From NCBI GenBank assembly GCA_050015075.1, contig JBEKCB010000003.1, positions 160,001 to 224,000 on the forward strand: a stretch of 64,000 nucleotides of DNA, in the 5' to 3' direction. How positions within the stretch are numbered: the first letter of the stretch is position 1; every line of letters begins with the position of its first letter. The notes beneath the pieces were generated by a model that searched no databases, had not been told where the DNA came from, and saw nothing but the letters and a program-made list of their open reading frames with translations. Of the stretch, positions 17 through 43,908 are shown piece by piece. A program made the position numbers and the translations under genes. The DNA comes from Candidatus Brocadiia bacterium (GTDB lineage: Bacteria; Planctomycetota; Brocadiia; CAIUPP01).

Positions 17-1240
17 GTGGGCGTGCTCGGGTTCCGGCGTTACGTGAGGCGCGCCCTGGACGAAGAGAGCGATTTCCTGAAGCGCGAAGCCGGCTCGGCG
101 GTCGCCGCGGGCGCGGCCGCCGGAACGAGCCGGCTCCGGCAGCACACGCCGAAAATCTCCGTCATCCTTCCGTGCAAGGGGATTGATCCGGGCTTCGAGG
201 AAAATGTGCGTTCGATCCTCGAGCAGCGATACCCGGATTTCGAGATCATCTTCGCCACGGCCACCGCCGACGATCCCGCCCGCAAGAGCCTGGAGGCGCT
301 GCTGAAACGGCAGCCTTCGCGGAAGGTCCGGCTGGTCGTCGCCGGAATCCAGCCGGGAAGAAGCCAGAAATTGAACAACCAGTTGGCCGCGCTGGAGGCC
401 GTGCGCCCCGAGAGCGAGGTGCTGGTCTTCTTGGATTCCGACATCCGCGCGCGGCCGACGTTCCTGCTGAGCCTGATCGAGCCGTTCGGGCGCGCGGAGA
501 CGGGCGCGACGACGGGCTTCCGGTGGTACATTCCCGAGAAGGGCGGGTTCGCCTCTTATCTGCGCGCGGCCTGGAACGGCGGCGGGACGCCGATCCTGGC
601 GCAGCGCGGCCTGGCTTACGCCTGGGGCGGCGCGATGGCGATGCGGAAGAGCGATTTCGCGCGGGCCGGCATCCGCGAAAAATGGGCCACGGCGCTGACG
701 GATGATTTTCCCCTGACCGATGCCGTGCGCAACGTGTTGAAGAGCGCCGTCGTCTTCGTGCCGCGCTGCCTGGTGCCCTCGCACGAGGATGCTTCGCTCC
801 GGCAGACGCTCGAGTGGACGAACCGGCAGACGATCATCTGCCGGGTGTACAATCCGAAGCTCTGGTGGGTCCTGTTCGTGTCGCACGGCGTGCAGTCCTT
901 GGCGCTCTTGGCCGGAGCGGCGCTGGTGGCGGCTCGGTTCCTGGGCGCTGCTGGGTTTTCTCTGACGCCTGTATTGTTTTTGTTCGCCGCCATTCCCGTC
1001 CAGATCGGTTTCGGGATGCTCCTGTGGCAGGCCGTGCGAGCGCATCTGCTTCCGGAGATCGGCGGCTGGGGCGAGGCGCTCAAGCATGCGCTGCTCGTGC
1101 CGGCGGCGATTGTCCTGATCTTCTATAACAGTGTGCATTCGCTCTGCACGAGCGTCATCTGCTGGCGAGGCGTGAAGTACCGGCTGCTTTCGGCCACGCG
1201 CACCGAAGTGCTCCCGGAGAGAACGACGCCACAGGGTTGA
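17..1240 (+). CDS. Glycosyltransferase family 2 (ceramide glucosyltransferase/HpnI-like); probably 5'-truncated by the window edge
   Basis: ISVILPCKG, QKLNN, FLDSD (DxD), AWGGAM, LTDD and WTNRQ motifs, followed by C-terminal TM helices. Confidence 0.85.
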   Translation: MGVLGFRRYVRRALDEESDFLKREAGSAVAAGAAAGTSRLRQHTPKISVILPCKGIDPGFEENVRSILEQRYPDFEIIFATATADDPARKSLEALLKRQPSRKVRLVVAGIQPGRSQKLNNQLAALEAVRPESEVLVFLDSDIRARPTFLLSLIEPFGRAETGATTGFRWYIPEKGGFASYLRAAWNGGGTPILAQRGLAYAWGGAMAMRKSDFARAGIREKWATALTDDFPLTDAVRNVLKSAVVFVPRCLVPSHEDASLRQTLEWTNRQTIICRVYNPKLWWVLFVSHGVQSLALLAGAALVAARFLGAAGFSLTPVLFLFAAIPVQIGFGMLLWQAVRAHLLPEIGGWGEALKHALLVPAAIVLIFYNSVHSLCTSVICWRGVKYRLLSATRTEVLPERTTPQG

Positions 1241-2406
1241 GGCCGATGAACATCCCGCTCTCGATATTTCTGAAGATCGCGTTCCGCACGCCGGACCTGT
1301 TCCTGTCCGTCGCGCGCGAGACGATCCGCTCGCATACGGCGCGCCTGCTGGACTACCGCTTCGGCAGGGGCTACGCCTTTCCGCCGCGGTACATTGACCT
1401 GAAGATGACGAACCTCTGCAACCTGCGCTGCAGCATGTGCGGCCAATGGGGCGACCAGGGGAATTTCCGCAACGCGCCGAAGGAGGTCCTGCAGCAGCAA
1501 CTGGAGCTGCCCGTCCTCAAACGGCTGGTGAAAGAGGTCGCCGGCTTCCGCCCGTCGTTCTATCTCTGGGGCGGCGAACCGTTCCTCTACCGCGACCTGA
1601 TTCCGTTCATCAGCACCATCAAGGCGAACAAAATGGTCTGCGCGATGAACACGAACGGGACCTTCCTGACCGAGACGGCCGATGACCTCGTCCGCCTGGG
1701 CGTGGACAATCTGCTGATTTCCGTGGACGGCCCGCGCGAGGTCCACGATCGCGTCCGCGGCATGGCCGGGACTTTCGATCGGGTGATGACCGGAGTGGAT
1801 CGCATCCTTTCGCTCCGGCGCGAACGGCGGGCCGCGAAGCCCTACGTGACCTTCGTCATAACGGTCAATCGGGAGAACGCGTCCGAGTTCCACCATGTCT
1901 ACGACCTGGCGGCGAAGCTCGGGGTGGATTTCGTCGGTCTCCAGTTCGGCACCTCCACGAGCGAGGCCACCGGCGGGGCATACGAGAAGAGGATGAAGCG
2001 GTGCCTGGGGTGCCTCGCGACAAGCTGGCGGGGGTTTCTCTCCTACAAGGTGGACTTCGACGTGGCGGCCGTCCAGGAAGGGCTCAAGCGGATCCGCAGC
2101 ACGCGACATCCGTTCGGCACGTATTTCATCCCGGATCTGTATCCCGAGGACCTGCCGGATTACTACGGCTCGAAGCACTTGGTGAAAGGACACCGCACCT
2201 GCATCGTGCCGTGGATCCGCGCGGACCTGCTGCCGAACGGCGACGTGTACCCGTGCATTGATTTCCCGGATTATATCGTCGGCAATATCCATGAGACTCC
2301 GTTGATGACCCTCTGGAACGGCCCGCAATATGTGCGGTTCCGCCGGGAATTGCAGAAAGGGCTTTTCGCGATCTGCAGCCGGTGCTCTTCGCTTTACGAG
2401 TTTTGA
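1237..2406 (+). CDS. Radical SAM protein with SPASM/Twitch domain
   Basis: CNLRCSMC, WGGEP, ISVDG, and C-terminal CIVPW...NGDVYPC...GNI...ICSRC; ATG at 1246 is an alternative start. Confidence 0.9.
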   Translation: MRPMNIPLSIFLKIAFRTPDLFLSVARETIRSHTARLLDYRFGRGYAFPPRYIDLKMTNLCNLRCSMCGQWGDQGNFRNAPKEVLQQQLELPVLKRLVKEVAGFRPSFYLWGGEPFLYRDLIPFISTIKANKMVCAMNTNGTFLTETADDLVRLGVDNLLISVDGPREVHDRVRGMAGTFDRVMTGVDRILSLRRERRAAKPYVTFVITVNRENASEFHHVYDLAAKLGVDFVGLQFGTSTSEATGGAYEKRMKRCLGCLATSWRGFLSYKVDFDVAAVQEGLKRIRSTRHPFGTYFIPDLYPEDLPDYYGSKHLVKGHRTCIVPWIRADLLPNGDVYPCIDFPDYIVGNIHETPLMTLWNGPQYVRFRRELQKGLFAICSRCSSLYEF

Positions 2407-2414
2407 CCGGGGGA

Positions 2415-3146
2415 ATGGAAGTGGCGAGGAAAGGTCTCAGCCGGATGTCGCTCATGACCGCCGACGTGATTCGGCTGGCGGTTGACGTTCTGCTCCACGC
2501 AGGAGCGATTCTCCTTGCGGGGTTCGTCTTCGTTCAAGTGTGGCGGCAGGGCGCCGTTCTGTGGCGCGTGCTGGCGTTTCCGGCGGCGTACCTGGGCCTG
2601 GTCGCCGGGTTCTGGGCGAGCGTCCTGGTCCTGCGGGCGATCCTCCTCCGCAGGATCACGCCCGGCACGTACCGGCTGAGCGAGCCGGCGGCGGTGCGAT
2701 GGATCGTCGCGGATTCTTTCATGCGCATGGTGCAGCGGAGTTTTCTCCACGGCTATATTGACGACTTCGCGCCGATGCGATATCTCTTCTATCGCTCGCT
2801 GGGCGCGCGGATAGACCGGACGTTTTTCTTCGGCTGGGACGCGAAGATCACCGATCCCTGGGCCCTTGCGGTCGGCCGGGACGTGATCATCGGCAGCTTC
2901 GCGGTGATCCTGGGGCATTCCGTCGAAGGGGACCAGGTGATTCTGGACCGCGTGGAAATAGGCGATGGAGCGACGGTGGGCATCCGGTCCGTGATCATGC
3001 CCGGCGTAAAAATCGGCGCGCGCGCGATGGTGGGCGCCTGTTCGTTGGTCCTGAAAGGAACGACGATACCCGCCGGCGAGATTTGGGCCGGCGTGCCGGC
3101 GCGGAAGATCGGCGGCGGCGCGGCGGCTTCCCCGAAGCAAGTTTGA
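2415..3146 (+). CDS. Membrane-anchored hexapeptide-repeat (LbH) acyltransferase
   Basis: Two N-terminal TM segments; VEIGDGATVG/VIMPGVKIG/IWAGVPARKI hexapeptide repeats. Confidence 0.8.
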   Translation: MEVARKGLSRMSLMTADVIRLAVDVLLHAGAILLAGFVFVQVWRQGAVLWRVLAFPAAYLGLVAGFWASVLVLRAILLRRITPGTYRLSEPAAVRWIVADSFMRMVQRSFLHGYIDDFAPMRYLFYRSLGARIDRTFFFGWDAKITDPWALAVGRDVIIGSFAVILGHSVEGDQVILDRVEIGDGATVGIRSVIMPGVKIGARAMVGACSLVLKGTTIPAGEIWAGVPARKIGGGAAASPKQV

Positions 3147-3166
3147 TTTCATCGTTGGAGAATGAT

Positions 3167-4351
3167 GTGGCGCCCGCAAAGACTGTGGCGGTGGTTCGTT
3201 GCAGCCGGTATGAGCGGAAACTTCTCCGCGATGCCGTCGAGGGAGTCTTCACCCTGATCCCGGAAGCGGCGGCTCATCTCAGCCGAGGCGCCAAGGTGCT
3301 GCTCAAGCCGAACCTGTTAAGCTCCACGGACCCGCCCGAGCGGGCGGTGAACACCCATCCCGAATTCGTCCGCGCGGTGGTCGAGTTCTGCCGCGACCGC
3401 GGCTGCGCCGTCTGGATCGGCGACTCCTGCGGAAGCCTGGCGCCCGGTTCCACGGGAAGCGCGATGGAGGTCACGGGCCTGAACCGCGTGGCCCTGGAGA
3501 CCGGCGCCCAGTTGGTCAACTTCGACACCGCCCCGAGCGTGGAAGTCCCGATCCCCAACGGCCGTGTCCTTCAGCGCGTGCGGATTTCCAAGCCGGCGCT
3601 CGAGGCGGAAGTGCTGGTCAGCCTGCCCAAGATGAAGACGCACGGGCTCACGCTGCTCACCGGCGCCGTCAAGAACCAGTTGGGCGTCGTGCCCGGCCGC
3701 GGGAAGAAGGACATCCATTGCGCGGCGCCGAAACCCGCCGAGATGTCGCAGGCGCTCGTGGATATCTACTCCGTCCTGCGGCCGCACATCGCCCTGATGG
3801 ATGGCGTGATCGCGATGGAGGGCAACGGCCCTGCCGCCGGCGAGCCGCGAGGCGTGGGCCTGGTCCTCGGCTCGGACGACTGCGTGGCGTTGGACGCGGT
3901 CGTCGCCCGGATCATGGGCTATTCGGATGGCGCGGTGATGACGACGCGCTTCGCGCACGAGCAGGGGCTTGGGACCGGAGACCTGGGCTCGATCCGGACC
4001 GCAGGGCTGACGCTGGCGGAGGCAGCCGTTCCGCACTTCAAGAAACTTCCGCATCGGCTCCAGGGCGTGATTTTCAAGTTCATTCCCGGCTTTCTCGCGA
4101 GCTGGATTTTCGACCAGTTGGGCTCCGCGCAGCCGGTGATCCTGGAGGACGCCTGCGTGCTTTGCGGCGAGTGCGTCCTCAACTGCCCGGTCCAGGCCCT
4201 TCGCCGGGAAGGCCGGCGGATCGTCACCAATCCGGCGGAGTGCATCACCTGCTATTGCTGCTCCGAGGTCTGCCGGCAGCGCGCGATCGAGATGCGCCGG
4301 CCGCTCATGGGGCGCGTGCTTCGCGTGTTCGCGGGAAAGCGTGCGAAGTAG
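3167..4351 (+). CDS. DUF362 domain protein with C-terminal 2x[4Fe-4S] ferredoxin
   Basis: VLLKPN, THP, LPKMKTH, TGAVKN, MEGNGP; CVLCGECVLNCP and CITCYCCSEVC; GTG start at 3167 after GGAG. Confidence 0.9.
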   Translation: MAPAKTVAVVRCSRYERKLLRDAVEGVFTLIPEAAAHLSRGAKVLLKPNLLSSTDPPERAVNTHPEFVRAVVEFCRDRGCAVWIGDSCGSLAPGSTGSAMEVTGLNRVALETGAQLVNFDTAPSVEVPIPNGRVLQRVRISKPALEAEVLVSLPKMKTHGLTLLTGAVKNQLGVVPGRGKKDIHCAAPKPAEMSQALVDIYSVLRPHIALMDGVIAMEGNGPAAGEPRGVGLVLGSDDCVALDAVVARIMGYSDGAVMTTRFAHEQGLGTGDLGSIRTAGLTLAEAAVPHFKKLPHRLQGVIFKFIPGFLASWIFDQLGSAQPVILEDACVLCGECVLNCPVQALRREGRRIVTNPAECITCYCCSEVCRQRAIEMRRPLMGRVLRVFAGKRAK

Positions 4352-4399
4352 CGCCCGGCGCGCCGTGAGGCGCATGGTCGTTGCGCGATGCGCGGATTA

Positions 4400-4438
4400 A
4401 AAAACGTGGGCCGCGTGATGCAATGCATCACGCGGCCC
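4400..4438 (-). terminator. Rho-independent terminator between convergent genes
   Basis: GGGCCGCGTGATGC-aat-GCATCACGCGGCCC perfect stem, followed by a T-run on the minus strand. Confidence 0.75.
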
Positions 4439-4493
4439 GTTCTTCCCCGGCGTCACATCATCAGGACGCTGGGCACGTCCAAGTCACCGTAAA

Positions 4494-5624
4494 TTACTTC
4501 TGCCGTCTCCGAAGGAACAGGCTGCTAAGTCCGAGGCCCAGCAACGTGAGAGTCGCCGGCTCGGGGACCGTAGACGCATACAGCGAAGACGAGTCCTGCG
4601 TGCTGCCAATGACTTCGTCGCCCGCCGCAGTGGTGAAAGTCTGACCGTCCACGGTGACGGTGCCGCCGGTCACTGTGCCCGCAATCGTGGGGACAGTGTA
4701 GGAGAAGGCGTCGTCACTTGCGATCTGCCAGCTACCCGCGTCCGCCGAAGTGCCCTCGTAATTCGAACTCTCCGGGAAGTAAAGGGTGGGCTGGAAATCG
4801 ATGAGATTGCCGACACCGCCGAAAGCGGCGACTGCACTTGCATTCCCGCCTTCGACTGCCAGGAAAATGCCGTTCTCCAGGTTGGGAGCCGTTCCGATAT
4901 TCCCAATGCCTGCGTCCGGCCCAGTCAGGGCAAGCGTTTCCACCGCGCAGTATGCGTTCCCGTTGATCGTGCCTTCATTCTCGAACACGCCATCAAGGAA
5001 CACGCTGCTGCTGGCGTTGGAACCGGCGCCCGGATAAGTGTCGAACGTTACGCCCGAAGTGCCCGGAACCCACTGTTGCGGCGCAAGGCCCGTGCCACCC
5101 GGATTGAACAACGCGTTCTTGCTTCCCGCCGTGGTGGAGCCGTTGTCAATGTTGTCATAGACGACCCACGCGCCGGACGTGCCAGCGGGCTGGCCGGACG
5201 GGATCGGGTTCCTGGTGCTGTTTCCAAGGTAGACGTAGAGGGTCGTGACGCCGGCCACTGTGGTGGTAGTCGCCCCAACCACTTTGAGGTCGTACGCAAG
5301 GCCGGTCAACGATCCATAGTTGGCTCCGCTGACTGAATTGAAAGCCAGCGAACTGCCACTCGTCTGGTCCACGAGTCCTTCCACGTTGAACAGGGTGCGG
5401 TCCTCATCCCCGCCTTGCGGCGCGTTGTTGAGGATCGGTCCCCAGCCTGCGGGCGCGGGCTCGCCGGTCGGGTAAGTCCCGGCAGGGAATCCCGGGATGC
5501 CCTGTCCGCCGGAGGCGACGTTGAAGTCTTCCGGCGACCGCGGGTACAGCGAATCTGCGTTCGCCGATGCCGCAAGGAAGGCCAGAATACCCAACACACT
5601 AACGACAACCAATGCTTTTCTCAT
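4494..5624 (-). CDS. PEP-CTERM sorting domain protein (secreted, Ser/Thr/Gly-rich)
   Basis: Signal peptide MRKALVVVSVLGILAFLAASANA; C-terminus VPEPATLTLLGLGLSSLFLRRRQK; GGAGG RBS. Confidence 0.95.
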   Translation of the reverse strand: MRKALVVVSVLGILAFLAASANADSLYPRSPEDFNVASGGQGIPGFPAGTYPTGEPAPAGWGPILNNAPQGGDEDRTLFNVEGLVDQTSGSSLAFNSVSGANYGSLTGLAYDLKVVGATTTTVAGVTTLYVYLGNSTRNPIPSGQPAGTSGAWVVYDNIDNGSTTAGSKNALFNPGGTGLAPQQWVPGTSGVTFDTYPGAGSNASSSVFLDGVFENEGTINGNAYCAVETLALTGPDAGIGNIGTAPNLENGIFLAVEGGNASAVAAFGGVGNLIDFQPTLYFPESSNYEGTSADAGSWQIASDDAFSYTVPTIAGTVTGGTVTVDGQTFTTAAGDEVIGSTQDSSSLYASTVPEPATLTLLGLGLSSLFLRRRQK

Positions 5625-5705
5625 CCTACCTGCACCTCCTCTATGATAAAGAAACCGATGAAGCCACACGTCACAATCGTCGCGCACGTCCGAGTTTTTG
5701 TTCGT

Positions 5706-6368
5706 TTAGCCCCTCCTTTCCCCCGAGTCCACAAACTTGCCCATAGTTCTCACAATGATGATGAAGTCCACCCACCAGCACATGCGCTGGGCGTACATGG
5801 TGTCGAGCTTGACTTTCCGGCGCACGTCGCGCAACGCGTGGTCGTAACCGGCGCGCACCTGCGCCAGGCCGGTGATCCCCGGCTTGACGGTGAGCCGCTG
5901 ATCGTAGCCGGGAATGCGTTCCCGGAGCTGCTGCACGAAATGAGGCCGCTCCGGCCGAGGACCGACGAGGCTCATTTCGCCGCGGACCACGTTGACGAGC
6001 TGCGGCAGTTCGTCCAGATGCGACCGCCTGAGAAAACCGCCGACCAGGGTCACGCGCGAGTCGTGCGCATCGGCCCACACCGGGCCGCTCTTCGTCTCGG
6101 CGTCGGGGCGCATCGTCCGCACCTTGATGATATTGAATGTGCGCCCATGCTCGCCGACGCGCTCCTGCTTGTAGAATGCAGGACCGCGCGAGGTCAACTT
6201 GACCAGCAGCGCGGTGAGACCGATGATCGGCGCGAACGCGACGAGCAATATAAGTCCGACGATGCGATCGAACTTCGGCTTCATCGAGCGGTATTTCGTC
6301 CGCAGATACCGCACGCCCATGGCGATGAAGCCTGTTCCGAGCAATGTAAGTGTTGCGGGTTCCGGCAT
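5706..6368 (-). CDS. Bacterial sugar transferase (polyprenyl-phosphate phosphoglycosyltransferase, WcaJ/PglC-like catalytic domain) with N-terminal PEP-CTERM-like motif
   Basis: KVRTM, DSRVT, LRRSHLDELPQL, GEMSLVGPRPE, KPGITGLAQV; starts MPEPATLTLLG after a GAGGG RBS. Confidence 0.9.
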   Translation of the reverse strand: MPEPATLTLLGTGFIAMGVRYLRTKYRSMKPKFDRIVGLILLVAFAPIIGLTALLVKLTSRGPAFYKQERVGEHGRTFNIIKVRTMRPDAETKSGPVWADAHDSRVTLVGGFLRRSHLDELPQLVNVVRGEMSLVGPRPERPHFVQQLRERIPGYDQRLTVKPGITGLAQVRAGYDHALRDVRRKVKLDTMYAQRMCWWVDFIIIVRTMGKFVDSGERRG

Positions 6369-6415
6369 TAGTCCCTCTGTTCTGATCCCGATAGTCTGAT
6401 CGTCTACTGAACCAA

Positions 6416-6432
6416 AGCAAGATGCATGCCAA
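6416..6432 (-). promoter_or_regulatory. Sigma54 (-24/-12) promoter
   Basis: Minus strand TTGGCAT-GCATC-TTGCT matches TGGCAC-N5-TTGCW; AT-rich region upstream. Confidence 0.75.
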
Positions 6433-6932
6433 TAATTTCCATTAATCCGGGCCCGAAACCGCCGTGCGTGGAATGCACTGTCAAATAAGGACATAGGACA
6501 CTTTTGAATCTGAAATTATCTGCGAATCCGCGTTTTTAGGGGAATCGTATATGAAAACCGTGTTGAGAGGGCTAGACAGACTGGACTTCACGGAATGACA
6601 CTTAACAACATAACGTGCATTCTTATAGTGCGTTATGACGCGTTCATAATTTTAGACTCGCGAAAGTGATTTGAACTTGGGCCGAAGCCAGCCTGGCTAT
6701 GATGCTAACGTGCGCTCTAACAGGGACTTGCGATGAACCGTTTCAGGGCTGTGGAGTTCTTGTGGAAAAGCGGATGCAATGCTGAAAAGCCACGGCGAAG
6801 CCGTGTTGTGGACTCTCGGCGCGACGGGGTTCGAACGTCGAAATGCATCCGCTTGACCATGAGGCGCGCTCAAGGTATGCTTGTGGACGCACTGCGACTT
6901 GCCGTTTCGCTTTCCGCCCTGGGATGGGTTTC

Positions 6933-7784
6933 ATGGATCAAGCCGCGTCGGGCAAGACACTGGGTTTGGCCTTGGGCGGAGGCAGCGAACTGGGGCTGGC
7001 GCATCTGGGCGTGCTGTGCGTGCTCGAAGAGCACGGCATTCGAGCCTCATTTATTTCCGGCTGCAGCGCCGGAGCGCTCGTGGCGGCTTTTTACGCCGGC
7101 GGCGCGCCGGTGGAATTCATGCGCGAGATCGGGCTGAGGCTCAACTGGCGCGCGCTCCAGAAGTTCACGCTGCCGGTGCTGGCGCTCTCGACGAACGAGC
7201 CGCTGGGGCGGTTCCTCCAACGATTCCTGCCCGCGCGCGATTTCGCATCGCTCAAGATACCGATCCGGCTCGTGACGACGGACCTGCTTACGGCGGAGAT
7301 GGTGGTCTTTCAAGGCGGGCCGCCGTTCAAGCCGCTCGGGATCATCGAGGACCCGGAAGTGGTTTTCGAGACCGGCGATTTCATCGAGGCGGTCCGGGCG
7401 AGCTGCGCCCGGCCGGTCATCAATCGCCCGGTGAAGATCGGCAAGCGGCTGCTCGTGGACGGCGCATTGACGAACAATGTGCCCGCGCTGCTGACGCGCG
7501 ACATGGGCGCCGACGTGGTCGTCGCGGTGGACCTGCACCGGCGCCAGTGGAAGGACAAGCCGCCCACGAACATCTTCACCTACGCCGTCCAGGCCCAGGC
7601 GATCCACCTGCACTGGAGCATCAAGCACCGCAAGGTCGCCGCCGACGTGGTGATCCATCCCGACTTCAGCCAGGTGCGCGCGCTGGATTTTTCGGCGGGG
7701 AAGGATCTGGTGCGCTGTGGCGAGGAAGCCGCGAGGAACGCGCTGCCGGCGATTCAGGAAGCCCTGGCCTGCCCGAAGCCGTAA
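6933..7784 (+). CDS. Patatin-like phospholipase (RssA/NTE family)
   Basis: LALGGGS oxyanion loop, GCSAG (GxSxG), VDGA. Confidence 0.9.
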   Translation: MDQAASGKTLGLALGGGSELGLAHLGVLCVLEEHGIRASFISGCSAGALVAAFYAGGAPVEFMREIGLRLNWRALQKFTLPVLALSTNEPLGRFLQRFLPARDFASLKIPIRLVTTDLLTAEMVVFQGGPPFKPLGIIEDPEVVFETGDFIEAVRASCARPVINRPVKIGKRLLVDGALTNNVPALLTRDMGADVVVAVDLHRRQWKDKPPTNIFTYAVQAQAIHLHWSIKHRKVAADVVIHPDFSQVRALDFSAGKDLVRCGEEAARNALPAIQEALACPKP

Positions 7785-7793
7785 GGAAACGCC

Positions 7794-8624
7794 CTACCCT
7801 TTTTGCGCGCCGCTTAACCGGTTGGTCACCAGCCCGTCCCAGTTGAAGTCCGGGTAGCATTCTCGAAGCCGGCTCAGCATGTAGTCGGGCGACTCCTGGA
7901 AGGTCTGCGTCCGTTCCATGAAGAAGTAGCGCAGGTCGCCGGCCGCCATGCGATAGCGGTTCTCGAACAGGCTCAGCGGCGTCCGGTCCTGGTAGAAGCG
8001 GCGCAGCAGCACCGGCCGTCCCTGGCATTCCTCCTCGACGCGCTCCAGGTCGAGCCGCCGGGCGATGGCCGGATTCCCGCTCACGCTCGGGTAGGCTCGC
8101 AGACCGCCGAGGGGCGTGAAGAGGAGGTACTCATGGTAGAACTTGTCGTGATGCGGGTTGACCGTGATGCAGAGGTCGGTGGACTTCAGCGACAGGGTCG
8201 CGTAGTCGAAGACCAGCTTCATGAGCGCGAGCACCATCGCCAGCGAGCGCGAGACGGACAGGCGGCGATCCGCGAGCATCGTGACCTCGATCAGCCGCCG
8301 GCCGGCGTCGCGCAGGGCCTGGACCTCGTCGTGGTAGATCTCGTCCATGGGCAGCCCGACCGGCGTGTCGGGGATCACCGACACCGTGGCGATGACTTCG
8401 TCGCGGATCACGCCGACGAAAGTGACCGTGCTCGGGAACGCGTTGAAGATCGTGAGGCGCAGGCCGGAAGAATTCGGCGGAATATAATCGCGGGTTCGAT
8501 AGTTCTGGTAGACCAGCTCGTACGCGCTTTCAAGCTCAGCGCGGCTGAGCGCCGGCCGGATCTCGAGGTCGCCGCTTCCCCCACGGTCAGCCTCGCCGGG
8601 CGTCGCGCTATCCTTCGGGATCAT
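7794..8624 (-). CDS. FeeM-like N-acyl amino acid synthase / GNAT-fold acyltransferase
   Basis: AYELVYQNY, D-T-PVGLPMDEIY, LIEVTMLA, LCITVNPHH-KFY pattern. Confidence 0.7.
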   Translation of the reverse strand: MIPKDSATPGEADRGGSGDLEIRPALSRAELESAYELVYQNYRTRDYIPPNSSGLRLTIFNAFPSTVTFVGVIRDEVIATVSVIPDTPVGLPMDEIYHDEVQALRDAGRRLIEVTMLADRRLSVSRSLAMVLALMKLVFDYATLSLKSTDLCITVNPHHDKFYHEYLLFTPLGGLRAYPSVSGNPAIARRLDLERVEEECQGRPVLLRRFYQDRTPLSLFENRYRMAAGDLRYFFMERTQTFQESPDYMLSRLRECYPDFNWDGLVTNRLSGAQKG

Positions 8625-8822
8625 CAACAAGACACGTCCTACATACCCGGAAAGGACAGTCCGTCCTTCTCCTGAAACAGCCCCAGCCAAAGGATTCTAC
8701 GTGACGACTTACCGATAGTCAACTCCGATGTCAAGAATATTTTCCAACGCCGCGCGCCGGCGCGCCCGCCGGGAACTTGCTTTTTCCGGCATCGTGTCCC
8801 GATGAGGTAATAAAAAAACCGC

Positions 8823-41221: not shown

Positions 41222-42535
41222 GTGCGTACACTTACGTCCACACAGTTTCGCGACGCGCTCGCCAAAGGACTTGGGCGAGCTGTCGAGCATGTCCGCAGCC
41301 AGCCTGCGCGATCCGTTCGCGGTGATCTGCTTTACGCCTGTCTGCACAACCTCCGCTACGATTACTGGTTCGAGGAAGGGCGTGACGACTGGCTGATGGA
41401 GTTGATCAACTTGACCGGCGACGCAGAGTTCTATCGTTGCCGGATTGTGCGCGCGCTCGCGAAGGCCAGGAAGCGCAAAGATGTGGACCAACTTTTCGTT
41501 TTGGCAGCCCTGTTCGCCGGACGCGGCGATGCGGAATCACGACAGGCCGTCTATGAGCGTTTTGACCGCTTTGAGCCCCAACTCAACTGGATGCGCTACA
41601 AGGCTGTCGTCCTGGCCGACGGGATGAGGGGCCTCGAACATATAGTCGAACGGGTCGGTGAGTACGCGCGGCTTGGACACGAAGTCAGAGATCCTGCGGC
41701 GGCATACGAAGTCGCCAGGATTCGATTTGGCGTCAGGCGCGTCCGTGCGGCATTGCGAAAGTGGGCGGCGCGCAGCCAAAACGCGAGGGCCTACATGGAA
41801 CTCGTCCTTCCCAAGGTGCAGTCCAGGCGCTGGAGCCCGCTCCGCAAAGTTCCCCCGACGGCCACGTTAGTCCGCAAGATCATGGGCGAACCGGTGGACC
41901 ACAGGTACATCGGGGTGCTCCATGCGCACGGCACGAAGGAGCAAATCGCGGACTTCTACCGGCAGATTCTGCGGGAGAAGTACCTGGATCGAGTGTGGCG
42001 AGGCCTGAAGTTCTTCTCCTCCTGGCCTCCTTTGCCCTGGTTGGAGCCGGCGCTCTTCCGCTGGGCGCGTTCGCGCAGACGACGGTTGCGAAGTGTCGCG
42101 ATTAACGCGTTGGCCTCCGTGCAAGCGCCGGAGGTGCGTGAATTTGCTCTCGGCGCTCTACAGGACAAACGGCTGTCGTGGCGATGGAACGCGCTGAGGC
42201 TTCTTCAATGGAACTTCGTCCGAGGCGACGGACGCTGGCTGGAGCCTCTCCTTCGATCCGTCCGCGACAGGAATACCATCCATGAGATCACGGTGGCCCT
42301 CCGCGACATCGCCAAGGGAAAGCGGTATCGTGATCTGAGAAGTTGCTTCATCTGGGGATACGAACAGACCCCATGTTCATTCTGCAGGAGATGCCTTGTC
42401 GAGACGCTCATTGAACGCGGCTGCGCTCCGCGTTGGTTGTTGGGGGAATGCCTCTCCGACTTCAATGACGATACGCGCGAGTTCGCGCGAAAGGCGCTGC
42501 ATGCGCTTGGCGTCGAGCCGACGGGGCATGACTGA
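41222..42535 (+). CDS. Hypothetical protein (helical-repeat-like, C-terminal CxxC)
   Basis: 437-aa ORF, KGLGRA...YEQTPCSFCR; atypical codon usage. Confidence 0.65.
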   Translation: MRTLTSTQFRDALAKGLGRAVEHVRSQPARSVRGDLLYACLHNLRYDYWFEEGRDDWLMELINLTGDAEFYRCRIVRALAKARKRKDVDQLFVLAALFAGRGDAESRQAVYERFDRFEPQLNWMRYKAVVLADGMRGLEHIVERVGEYARLGHEVRDPAAAYEVARIRFGVRRVRAALRKWAARSQNARAYMELVLPKVQSRRWSPLRKVPPTATLVRKIMGEPVDHRYIGVLHAHGTKEQIADFYRQILREKYLDRVWRGLKFFSSWPPLPWLEPALFRWARSRRRRLRSVAINALASVQAPEVREFALGALQDKRLSWRWNALRLLQWNFVRGDGRWLEPLLRSVRDRNTIHEITVALRDIAKGKRYRDLRSCFIWGYEQTPCSFCRRCLVETLIERGCAPRWLLGECLSDFNDDTREFARKALHALGVEPTGHD

Positions 42536-42597
42536 ACGAACCACGTCTATCCCCAGACGCGCGCATACGGCCCATCCAAGTGCAGGCGGAAAATGGA

Positions 42598-42749
42598 GCG
42601 GGCCGAACCCTTCGGCTTGGCCCGTTCTCGGTAGACCACATTTTCGCAGCAGTGACCATTCTCTGGACGGTCGCCCCGGCCTTCGCCAGGTCCGTTTTTG
42701 CGCCCGCAAGGCTCCGGTTTGCTGTAACGAACCAGATGGCTGGCCATCC
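42598..42749 (-). pseudogene. Degenerate, internally deleted copy of 44804-45270 (att-like core, gene 3' end, hairpin)
   Basis: Encodes ALAGAKTDLAKAGATVQRMVTAAK vs ALADAKADLAKAEATVESLVTAAK; shares the gggccgaacccttcggc hairpin and the 15-bp gatggctggccatcc. Confidence 0.75.
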
Positions 42750-43062
42750 GACACCGGCAGCGAACTCCGGCTGTCATTTCCTCTGGTCCGCAGGCGGGTT
42801 GCTCGCGGCAGAATCCTTGTCGAAACGGACTCGACACGCTGATTGCGCCAGGCACTTAAACCGCTCCGGCTCATTCTGCCATTCACCCGTGTCAAAATTG
42901 CACACGGGCGAATCACTTTCCAAGCCTCGAACGATGTCGAAAGCGACCACACTCTCGACACGACTTTAACCTGTGATCTCCAGACCCCCGGTCTGGAATC
43001 TGAACGGCGTTAGTCAGTATGGCGTATAGAGTTACGACGGGTGCCAGATGGGCTACTGACCG

Positions 43063-43908
43063 CTATGCTGTCATCGCGGCCGACAATTGCGTTCGAACGG
43101 GTCGGCGGGTTCTGCCATCCAAATTCGGGATGATGAAGATGGCGGCACCTTCGCTGACGGGCGTATCGAGCGCGACGGACACGCCGTTCACCCAAAGAGT
43201 GCCCAATCGGGCGAAACCACCGTAAAATTCCTCGGCCGCTTCCATGAGCGTTCCCTCGTGTCCTAACAACTTTCCGGAGCTTGGAGAGGAGAAAGCGTCC
43301 TGCACGGTGCCGCTCTCACGCGCCTCCACAGTGAGCGGCGCGAGCACACTGCGCGTTCCCTCCAAATCAATGCCAAGACTTGCGCAGACTCTGCGCCAGC
43401 GCGCCCTCATGTCCGGCGCAAAGAGATATGGAACATAGCCGAGGCCCAGGTAGACCTTGATCGCCGCAAGCCGGAAATCATCCGTTCGGAGGCACACCCA
43501 TTGCCGTCCGCTTTCGATAAAGCGTCGAGTCGCCGCCGCACAGACCGCATAACCCAGCCCTTTGCCTCTATGCTCCGGGTCGGCGGCAACCCAGTTCAAC
43601 TCGCCGCCTTCTATAAAACCGTCCAGTGGCACGCGCTGCGCTATGGCCGAAGCCGCAATGCGGTCTGTCTGGATATGTCTGATAACCAGGAATCCATCCG
43701 GCAGGGACTTTTCGATCGCCTCGGCGAGTTCTTTCTCTCCCCATTCGGCGAAGCCCGCAGTATGCATAAGCCGGAGGTGCTCGGCGGCGTCGCCAAGCCG
43801 GAAGGTGCAAAGCGCATATCCTTCCGGTAGAGGCCGGACCGGCGGTCTGGTGGCCGCCTCTCGCGGCCACCAGATCATGGCAAGTTGCTCCACGGTGTTG
43901 GCATTCAC
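43063..43908 (-). CDS. GNAT acetyltransferase with C-terminal MoaD/ThiS-like segment
   Basis: WVAADPEHRGKGLG, TDDFRLAAIKVYLGLG; C-terminal VNGVSVALDTPVSEGAAIFIIPNLDG. Confidence 0.8.
   Translation of the reverse strand: MNANTVEQLAMIWWPREAATRPPVRPLPEGYALCTFRLGDAAEHLRLMHTAGFAEWGEKELAEAIEKSLPDGFLVIRHIQTDRIAASAIAQRVPLDGFIEGGELNWVAADPEHRGKGLGYAVCAAATRRFIESGRQWVCLRTDDFRLAAIKVYLGLGYVPYLFAPDMRARWRRVCASLGIDLEGTRSVLAPLTVEARESGTVQDAFSSPSSGKLLGHEGTLMEAAEEFYGGFARLGTLWVNGVSVALDTPVSEGAAIFIIPNLDGRTRRPVRTQLSAAMTA

Follow-up and report, generated by a model that had tools for sequence, protein, structure and literature searches.

We analysed a 64,000-nucleotide stretch of DNA from a Candidatus Brocadiia bacterium (Planctomycetota; GenBank assembly GCA_050015075.1, contig JBEKCB010000003.1, positions 160,001 to 224,000 of the forward strand; hereafter the window). 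A gene on its minus strand encodes a predicted priming sugar transferase of the PglC type that opens, directly after the initial Met, with a membrane helix resembling the C-terminal PEP-CTERM sorting signal of exosortase cargo proteins. The conserved PEP-CTERM-like start suggests that sugar priming and protein sorting are physically linked. In the reading that we favour, with a probability of roughly 55%, the helix would act as a recognition or docking element for exosortase on the priming enzyme; the contact itself is what we infer from sequence patterns. The protein is laid out as follows.

5706..6368 (stop codon included), minus strand: PglC-type small monotopic phosphoglycosyl transferase, 220 aa, recognised by a Bac_transf match and an AlphaFold2 model.
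6285..6368, minus strand: N-terminal PEP-CTERM-like module, residues 1–28, recognised by a PF07589 score of 19.0 bits, conservation and a low ratio of nonsynonymous to synonymous differences (pN/pS).
5733..6275, minus strand: Bac_transf catalytic domain with re-entrant helix, residues 32–212, recognised by a Pfam match and invariant P47, D119 and E120.

Domain score, fold and conserved residues identify the protein as a small monotopic phosphoglycosyl transferase, with phosphosugar transfer as its predicted activity. Residues 32–212 match the Pfam family Bac_transf (PF02397) with 206.7 bits (cut-off 27, E 2.6e-61), and P47, D119 and E120, which we take to be the helix-break proline and the catalytic dyad, are invariant in an alignment of 83 homologues. 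The AlphaFold2 model (predicted local distance difference test, pLDDT, 84.9) superposes with its residues 23–215 on PglC of Campylobacter concisus (8e37_A; Z 20.8, root-mean-square deviation 3.0, 179/185 residues aligned, 33% identity), and Foldseek relates model and PglC with an E value of 7e-14. Since this alignment spans the whole of PglC and leaves transferase residues 1–22 outside, these residues come on top of an otherwise complete PglC-type enzyme, as an extra hydrophobic helix beyond the catalytic core. The transferase thus shares with PglC (PDB 8e37, 8g1n) the catalytic domain, the re-entrant helix, Pro47 and Asp119-Glu120, and differs from it by 22–28 additional N-terminal residues that form a PEP-CTERM-like, membrane-spanning helix. 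Monotopic phosphoglycosyl transferases have been sorted into small, large and bifunctional classes (PMC11626204); in the accessible part of that 2024 survey a class with a PEP helix is not among them, and PEP-CTERM and exosortase have 0 mentions. A full-text search of the open literature turned up no priming transferase described as having a PEP-CTERM-like N-terminus.

The module consists of Met, Pro-Glu-Pro, a helix of 15 hydrophobic residues and a basic cluster, and so has all three parts of the PEP-CTERM sorting domain (PF07589/TIGR02595; Haft et al. 2006, PMC1569441), with a hydrophobic stretch of about the same length. The transferase helices also keep the G-x-G register of PEP-CTERM tails. 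Unlike a cargo tail, the module stands at the N-terminus, with neither signal peptide nor exported domain ahead of PEP, and leads into a cytoplasmic enzyme rather than ending the protein; also unlike such tails, its basic cluster is broken by aromatic residues. PF07589 matches residues 2–20 with 19.0 bits, just below its cut-off of 20.7, and TIGR02595 gives 11.5 to 15.3 bits (cut-off 16). With PF07589 hits at E ≤ 0.01 in 46 of the 83 aligned homologues (lowest E 5.2e-07) and a TIGR02595 score above the cut-off for the orthologue in genome G007 (21.5 bits versus 16), the resemblance is above chance. P2, E3, P4 and Y26 are invariant in the 83 sequences and conservation is 90% or higher at M1, L9, G13 and K30, the invariance of PEP being circular in a set picked for a PEP start. 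At four loci (L004–L007, genomes G013, G023, G007 and G027) the start codon is GTG and the DNA reads Val-PEP; most cargo tails have Val or Ile ahead of PEP, and the Val-PEP form may point back to an internal tail as its source.

Several observations bear on whether the PEP segment is made as protein. An ATG or GTG stands directly ahead of PEP in 28/28 loci, preceded at a distance of 5–11 nt by a Shine-Dalgarno (SD) site (GAGG, GGAGG or AGGA) in 24 of them. In the window this is

6373..6377, minus strand: Shine-Dalgarno site GAGGG, 5 nt ahead of the ATG at 6368.

An in-frame stop codon immediately precedes Met at locus L019, and stop and Met are only 1–4 codons apart at L033, L016, L030, L015 and L024. 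The position of the internal Met29 is occupied by Met in 13 of 102 homologues and by Ala in 64; most carry Ala, Val or Gly there. Over codons 2–27, pN/pS is 0.00–0.34 in nine within-lineage pairs, and 0.07–0.31 over the catalytic core of the same pairs; deep pairs have values of 0.44–0.70. By these measures the PEP segment is translated and under purifying selection. A preliminary description had read a PEP motif, a transmembrane helix and a basic cluster at the start of the transferase and had invoked protein-level selection, and it was right on both counts, as seen from the Met-PEP, 15-residue helix and basic cluster encoded at 5706–6368 and from the low pN/pS of codons 2–27. Its own worry that translation might begin downstream, at Met29, is answered by the start codon directly ahead of PEP, the SD site and the poor conservation of Met29.

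Orthologues keep the N-terminal PEP, as that description would have it: 101 of 120 listed homologue clusters (57–97% identity) start with M-PEP or V-PEP. In four more, PEP follows additional residues of the gene call; PDP or AEP stands in its place in two, one lacks any such motif, and 12 start inside or after the helix, which, judged without their DNA, are probably start choices of the gene caller. At least 29 sampled Planctomycetota genomes carry a PEP-transferase, the carriers from the phylum sample described below being spread over nine families. The closest orthologues that have no PEP have a shortened, non-spanning N-terminus.

Beyond this group, a profile search of 1.84 billion representatives returned 78,546 transferases. 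Among the best 150 of these, a PEP tripeptide precedes the catalytic domain in 15, and a PEP-helix-basic module was judged present in 12. Three of the 12 have no leader or almost none; the leaders of the others are a signal-peptide-like start with a 40–55-residue spacer, a 135-residue stretch or a 246-residue domain. Because these longer relatives bear a real exported part ahead of PEP, the helix can be regarded as a true PEP-CTERM derivative, and the M-PEP form appears as the minimal end of a series of leader-bearing forms. That only the helix was retained implies that the helix itself is maintained by selection. With the longer fusions of signal peptide, spacer, PEP-CTERM and transferase our protein shares the PEP-helix-basic module directly ahead of a PglC-type domain; it differs from them in having PEP at residues 2–4, no exported part and a host from the Planctomycetota (Brocadiia).

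A tree of 75 catalytic domains (quick search, 6 rows left out) groups 13 rows into the clade of the host genome with a support of 99 (Shimodaira–Hasegawa-like approximate likelihood ratio test, SH-aLRT). M-PEP forms do not all fall together on it; seven changes are needed, of which well-supported branches force only two. The tree is weakly resolved and places the cargo-bearing forms apart from the host genome's clade. A search of genome contigs with a generic catalytic motif gave 79 unrelated transferases and one close relative; a homologue search with residues 1–40 gave 18 scored candidates with 13 near relatives, which is no measure of family size.

A connection with exosortase is supported by the company that the helix keeps. 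Among 31 relatives, exosortase is present in 7/7 genomes with a PEP-transferase versus 8/24 others. In an even sample of 401 genomes from the phylum, 25 had a match from profile position 1, and 24 were kept as carriers after their N-termini had been read (23 PEP, 1 AEP); the one dropped, G176, has a 465-aa large transferase without PEP. Exosortase was found in 23 of these 24 carriers versus 146 of the 377 other genomes (~39%), where 24 is a lower bound among the best matches listed and the comparison group may contain unlisted PEP forms. Of the carrier genomes sampled, at least 29 in number, 28 encode an exosortase, and in families f1, f5 and f7 the two genes are jointly present or jointly absent. 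Where the closest orthologue has no PEP, exosortase was found in 0/5 sampled genomes of f52, as one weak match in 9 sampled genomes of f77 and in 6/8 of f18. The rule is therefore one-way: a PEP helix goes with exosortase, and exosortase does not require a PEP helix. The preliminary description had suggested searching for PEP-CTERM N-terminal to Bac_transf and for its co-occurrence with exosortase; on these two points the analysis gave the 46/83 PF07589 matches and the 28/29 carriers stated above.

The two genes are also frequently adjacent. Exosortase lies 1–2.2 kb upstream of the transferase on the same strand in nine genomes (G007, G013, G023, G027, G124, G202, G186, G418 and G307) and 6.5 kb away in G230. 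For at least 28 metagenome clusters of the transferase, the longest contig has exactly the length of the longest contig of an exosortase cluster, so both genes presumably lie on the same contig. The order in G007 is ATPase, chain-length protein, kinase, family 2 glycosyltransferase (GT2), unknown protein, exosortase-EpsI, PEP-transferase and PEP-CTERM cargo. Convergent with this block are genes for an HpnI-like GT2, a radical SAM protein and an acetyltransferase, which recur at positions 17–3146 of the window, although the radical SAM protein is of the B12-binding type in G007 and of the SPASM type in the window. One ancestral locus seems to have been split in the genome studied here.

That genome does encode an exosortase, a point on which the preliminary description had made its proposal depend. 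The single copy (G000:C19:41311-42072, E 6.3e-60) belongs to a 537-aa fusion with an EpsI domain (G000:C19:40570-42183; 8TM_EpsH 154 bits, cut-off 105.55; EpsI 73.9 bits, cut-off 42.8), and 80 homologues show no variation in its Cys, Arg and His columns. It falls below the cut-off of every named subtype (best XrtD, 239.3 versus 400; XrtA, TIGR03109, 173.4 versus 208). Its locus resembles that of the XrtA/PEP-CTERM exopolysaccharide system, with genes for an export protein, a TIGR03015-like ATPase, a TIGR03007-like chain-length determinant, a tyrosine kinase, a GT2 and the Xrt-EpsI fusion; a PrsT-like tetratricopeptide repeat protein in relatives and sigma-54-type promoters are further points of likeness. 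Unlike in that system, all system-specific models stay below their cut-offs here (TIGR03015 282.9/324.5, TIGR03007 202.9/278.85, TIGR03018 97.7/230.65, TIGR03027 79.3/180), although the proteins are clear homologues, and the priming enzyme is a small phosphoglycosyl transferase with a PEP helix instead of the large sugar transferase TIGR03013 (EpsB_2), which reaches 226 bits on our protein (cut-off 393.35) and aligns only with its catalytic part. A search of the genome for PrsR (TIGR02915) gave no match above the cut-off (best 397.9 versus 502.6), and many NtrC-type activators are present. The exosortase locus holds no priming transferase, and no transferase match was found on the exosortase contig. 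Exosortase is flanked there by two proteins of about 500 aa (G000:C19:39025-40518 and 42173-43672, L162) for which NCBIfam and Pfam gave no match; counterparts of the upstream protein occur in the f5 loci (L063:10785-12002).

These findings suggest how the helix could work. By the positive-inside rule, the Met-Pro-Glu-Pro start would be periplasmic, the 15-residue helix would span the membrane, and the basic cluster and the catalytic domain would be cytoplasmic, which would place PEP at the same membrane depth as in exosortase cargo. The enzyme is predicted to put a sugar-1-phosphate on polyprenyl phosphate and so to start a surface polysaccharide. The helix cannot deliver or sort cargo, because nothing precedes PEP; since no cargo would be released, it is simplest to read the helix as serving docking or co-localisation. 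The helix would bring the priming enzyme to the exosortase-EpsI fusion of the genome, and polysaccharide initiation and the processing of PEP-CTERM proteins would then take place at one site.

Several points weigh against this docking role. No result obtained here shows contact or cleavage. The PEP-CTERM scores of this particular transferase lie below both curated cut-offs, PF07589 and TIGR02595, and its gene and that for exosortase are on different contigs. No exosortase was seen in the carrier G218 (89% complete, 400 contigs). Kin genomes are not independent and the f5 genes share one locus, so that part of the joint presence is due to linkage, and the contrast with other genomes suffers if PEP forms went unlisted among them. 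The f18 genomes, of which 6/8 have exosortase along with a PEP-less orthologue, indicate that exosortases work without such a helix. Complex prediction for exosortase and transferase, which scored 0.00 in both runs (mark 0.32; controls not folded), speaks neither for nor against binding, and a search by sequence found no solved exosortase structure. The coupling to exosortase proposed in the preliminary description finds support in co-occurrence and adjacency, and no result shows docking or cleavage.

The question matters because the link between exosortase and exopolysaccharide has rested since 2006 on gene neighbourhood only (Haft et al. 2006, PMC1569441, accessible part). A priming enzyme with a presumed exosortase recognition helix minus the cargo separates recognition from sorting. 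The handle that it offers is simple and testable, consisting of a single helix, its three invariant residues and a pair of membrane proteins expected to meet. If the contact is true, glycan initiation and protein sorting would be organised in one membrane complex, and a fourth architectural class would be added to the monotopic phosphoglycosyl transferases.

Among the other explanations, the helix may be a mere membrane anchor, a relic of an old fusion of a PEP-CTERM gene with a transferase that has no contact with exosortase and would have been retained for inserting the enzyme into the membrane and keeping it there. PglC-type enzymes function with the re-entrant helix alone, and the accessible part of PMC11626204 describes unrelated N-terminal helices on large relatives; orthologues with a shortened, non-spanning N-terminus exist, and the catalytic-domain tree does not group all M-PEP forms. 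An anchor, however, has no need for an invariant Pro-Glu-Pro at residues 2–4 or for the G-x-G register of a sorting tail, nor does it account for exosortase in 28/29 carrier genomes and for its scarcity in the f52 and f77 genomes with the shortened N-terminus. We regard this explanation as unlikely.

Somewhat more doubtful is the idea that the helix is a true exosortase substrate, cleaved at PEP with the loss of one to four residues, or a decoy in the substrate groove. In either case exosortase activity would be limited or timed by how much transferase is present, or the transferase would be activated or inactivated by cleavage. The strict PEP, the helix length and the basic cluster are as in cargo; cargo-bearing relatives resemble cleavable substrates, and the M-PEP form resembles the remainder of such a cleavage; transferase and cargo belong to one transcription unit (see below) and would compete simultaneously. 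Yet in the absence of a cargo, cleavage would free next to nothing, and exosortases have no known cleavage site.

We give just as little credence to an extension of the same resemblance, in which the Met-PEP helix would mimic the membrane fragment left after exosortase cuts a cargo tail and would hold the priming enzyme permanently in a complex with exosortase, its lipid-linked glycan being the acceptor for PEP-CTERM proteins or on the path to it. We know of no report that identifies what exosortases attach their cargo to; were the fragment mimicry true, the acceptor would be named.

The gene that follows the transferase encodes the probable cargo, and the two are framed by a promoter element and a terminator.

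4494..5624, minus strand: secreted PEP-CTERM protein, 376 aa, likely exosortase cargo, with a signal-peptide-like start and a C-terminal PEP-CTERM.
4497..4571, minus strand: PEP-CTERM sorting tail of the cargo, residues 352–376, PF07589 26.8 bits and TIGR02595 24.3 bits, both above cut-offs.
6416..6431, minus strand: sigma-54-type promoter element matching the strict pattern (-24 GG at 6430-6429, -12 GC at 6418-6417).
4398..4438, minus strand: intrinsic terminator 3′ of the cargo gene, a 14-bp stem with 11 G-C pairs followed by a T run.

The preliminary description had noted that this next gene ends in PEP-CTERM, which the PF07589 score above the cut-off bears out, and its comparison of the two proteins proved exact: starting with PEP, transferase and cargo agree in ten consecutive residues, and 9 of the 10 codons differ, all synonymously. 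Twelve PEP-CTERM tails in the genome score at or above the TIGR02595 cut-off; the consensus of these tails consists of the ten residues in question, and one tail, on contig C37, carries them without change. With a genome-wide consensus that is identical, the match reflects a fit to this consensus and no private tie to the neighbour. The pairing of the transferase with a PEP-CTERM gene, which the description had also stressed, holds in the host genus, in f5 and f71 and beside a degenerate second copy in G024 (f7), and does not extend to f53, f85 and f8. This second transferase copy (L081:8625-9272, G024:C35) has other residues in place of PEP and charged residues in its helix; a PEP-CTERM gene still follows it, and the tree joins it to the intact copy as its sister (SH-aLRT 99).

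Transferase and one cargo gene form a predicted unit that runs from the sigma-54-type promoter to the intrinsic terminator. The promoter element ends about 37 nt upstream of the transferase ATG, with a predicted transcript start near 6405. Its strict pattern, TGG[CT]A[CT]-N4-6-TTGC[ATC], occurs 52–78 nt ahead of the start codon in 14/28 PEP-transferase loci, against a genome background of 0.003 expected per 160-nt window. The cargo start codon follows a GGAGG site and lies 81 nt from the transferase stop; in this spacer nothing convincing was seen by eye as a second promoter (sigma-54 or sigma-70) for the cargo, and a scan gave no minus-strand match.

Contigs from four metatranscriptome libraries (three studies) cover only 4461–6385, and 4300–4453 and 6456–6600 are empty in all four. 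The contigs over 4511–5694 show 0 differences; one (X19, record 15) bridges the 3′ end of the transferase gene and the cargo gene, and another (X18, record 14, 10 differences) crosses the PEP codons and reaches 6385. Such contigs show neither starts nor levels, and DNA contamination of RNA libraries is possible; as a weak hint, they fit the predicted unit and speak against the upstream ATG at 6494. Word depth in the same runs was 77–112 over the cargo (4511–5694) and 2–8 over the transferase (5696–6385), although contig depth cannot rank genes. We can practically dismiss an annotation artefact, in which translation would start at Met29 or at 6494 and the PEP segment would be untranslated or lie inside a longer leader: the reading frame is open up to 6494 and some gene callers pick downstream starts (12/120 clusters), but relatives have in-frame stops just ahead of Met, SD spacing is correct, the segment is under purifying selection, Met29 is not conserved, and the sigma-54 element lies downstream of 6494, with no RNA-library contigs over 6456–6600.

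Identity to the orthologue from the same genus is 74% for the cargo protein (orthologue at L072:9098-10255) and 95% for the transferase; the similarity of the cargo to the f5 cargo proteins reaches an E value of only about 1e-3. By comparison of sequences, the cargo evolves much faster than its own tail or the transferase.

The stretch is present in peat metagenomes. Convergent with the cargo gene, positions 17–4351 of the window encode an HpnI-like GT2, a radical SAM/SPASM protein, a hexapeptide acetyltransferase and a DUF362-plus-ferredoxin protein. Upstream of the transferase promoter lie genes for a patatin-like phospholipase (6843–7784, plus strand) and a FeeM-family N-acyl amino acid synthase (7794–8690, minus strand; 156 bits); the FeeM-like acyltransferase family is presumably among those listed as associated with exosortase systems. 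In family f53, a small gene with a PilZ domain is found directly upstream of the PEP-transferase (L073:7129-7545, L076:7028-7459, L075:9497-9910), which hints at control by cyclic di-GMP there, and at L073 a gene for an M48 peptidase lies downstream of the PEP-transferase.

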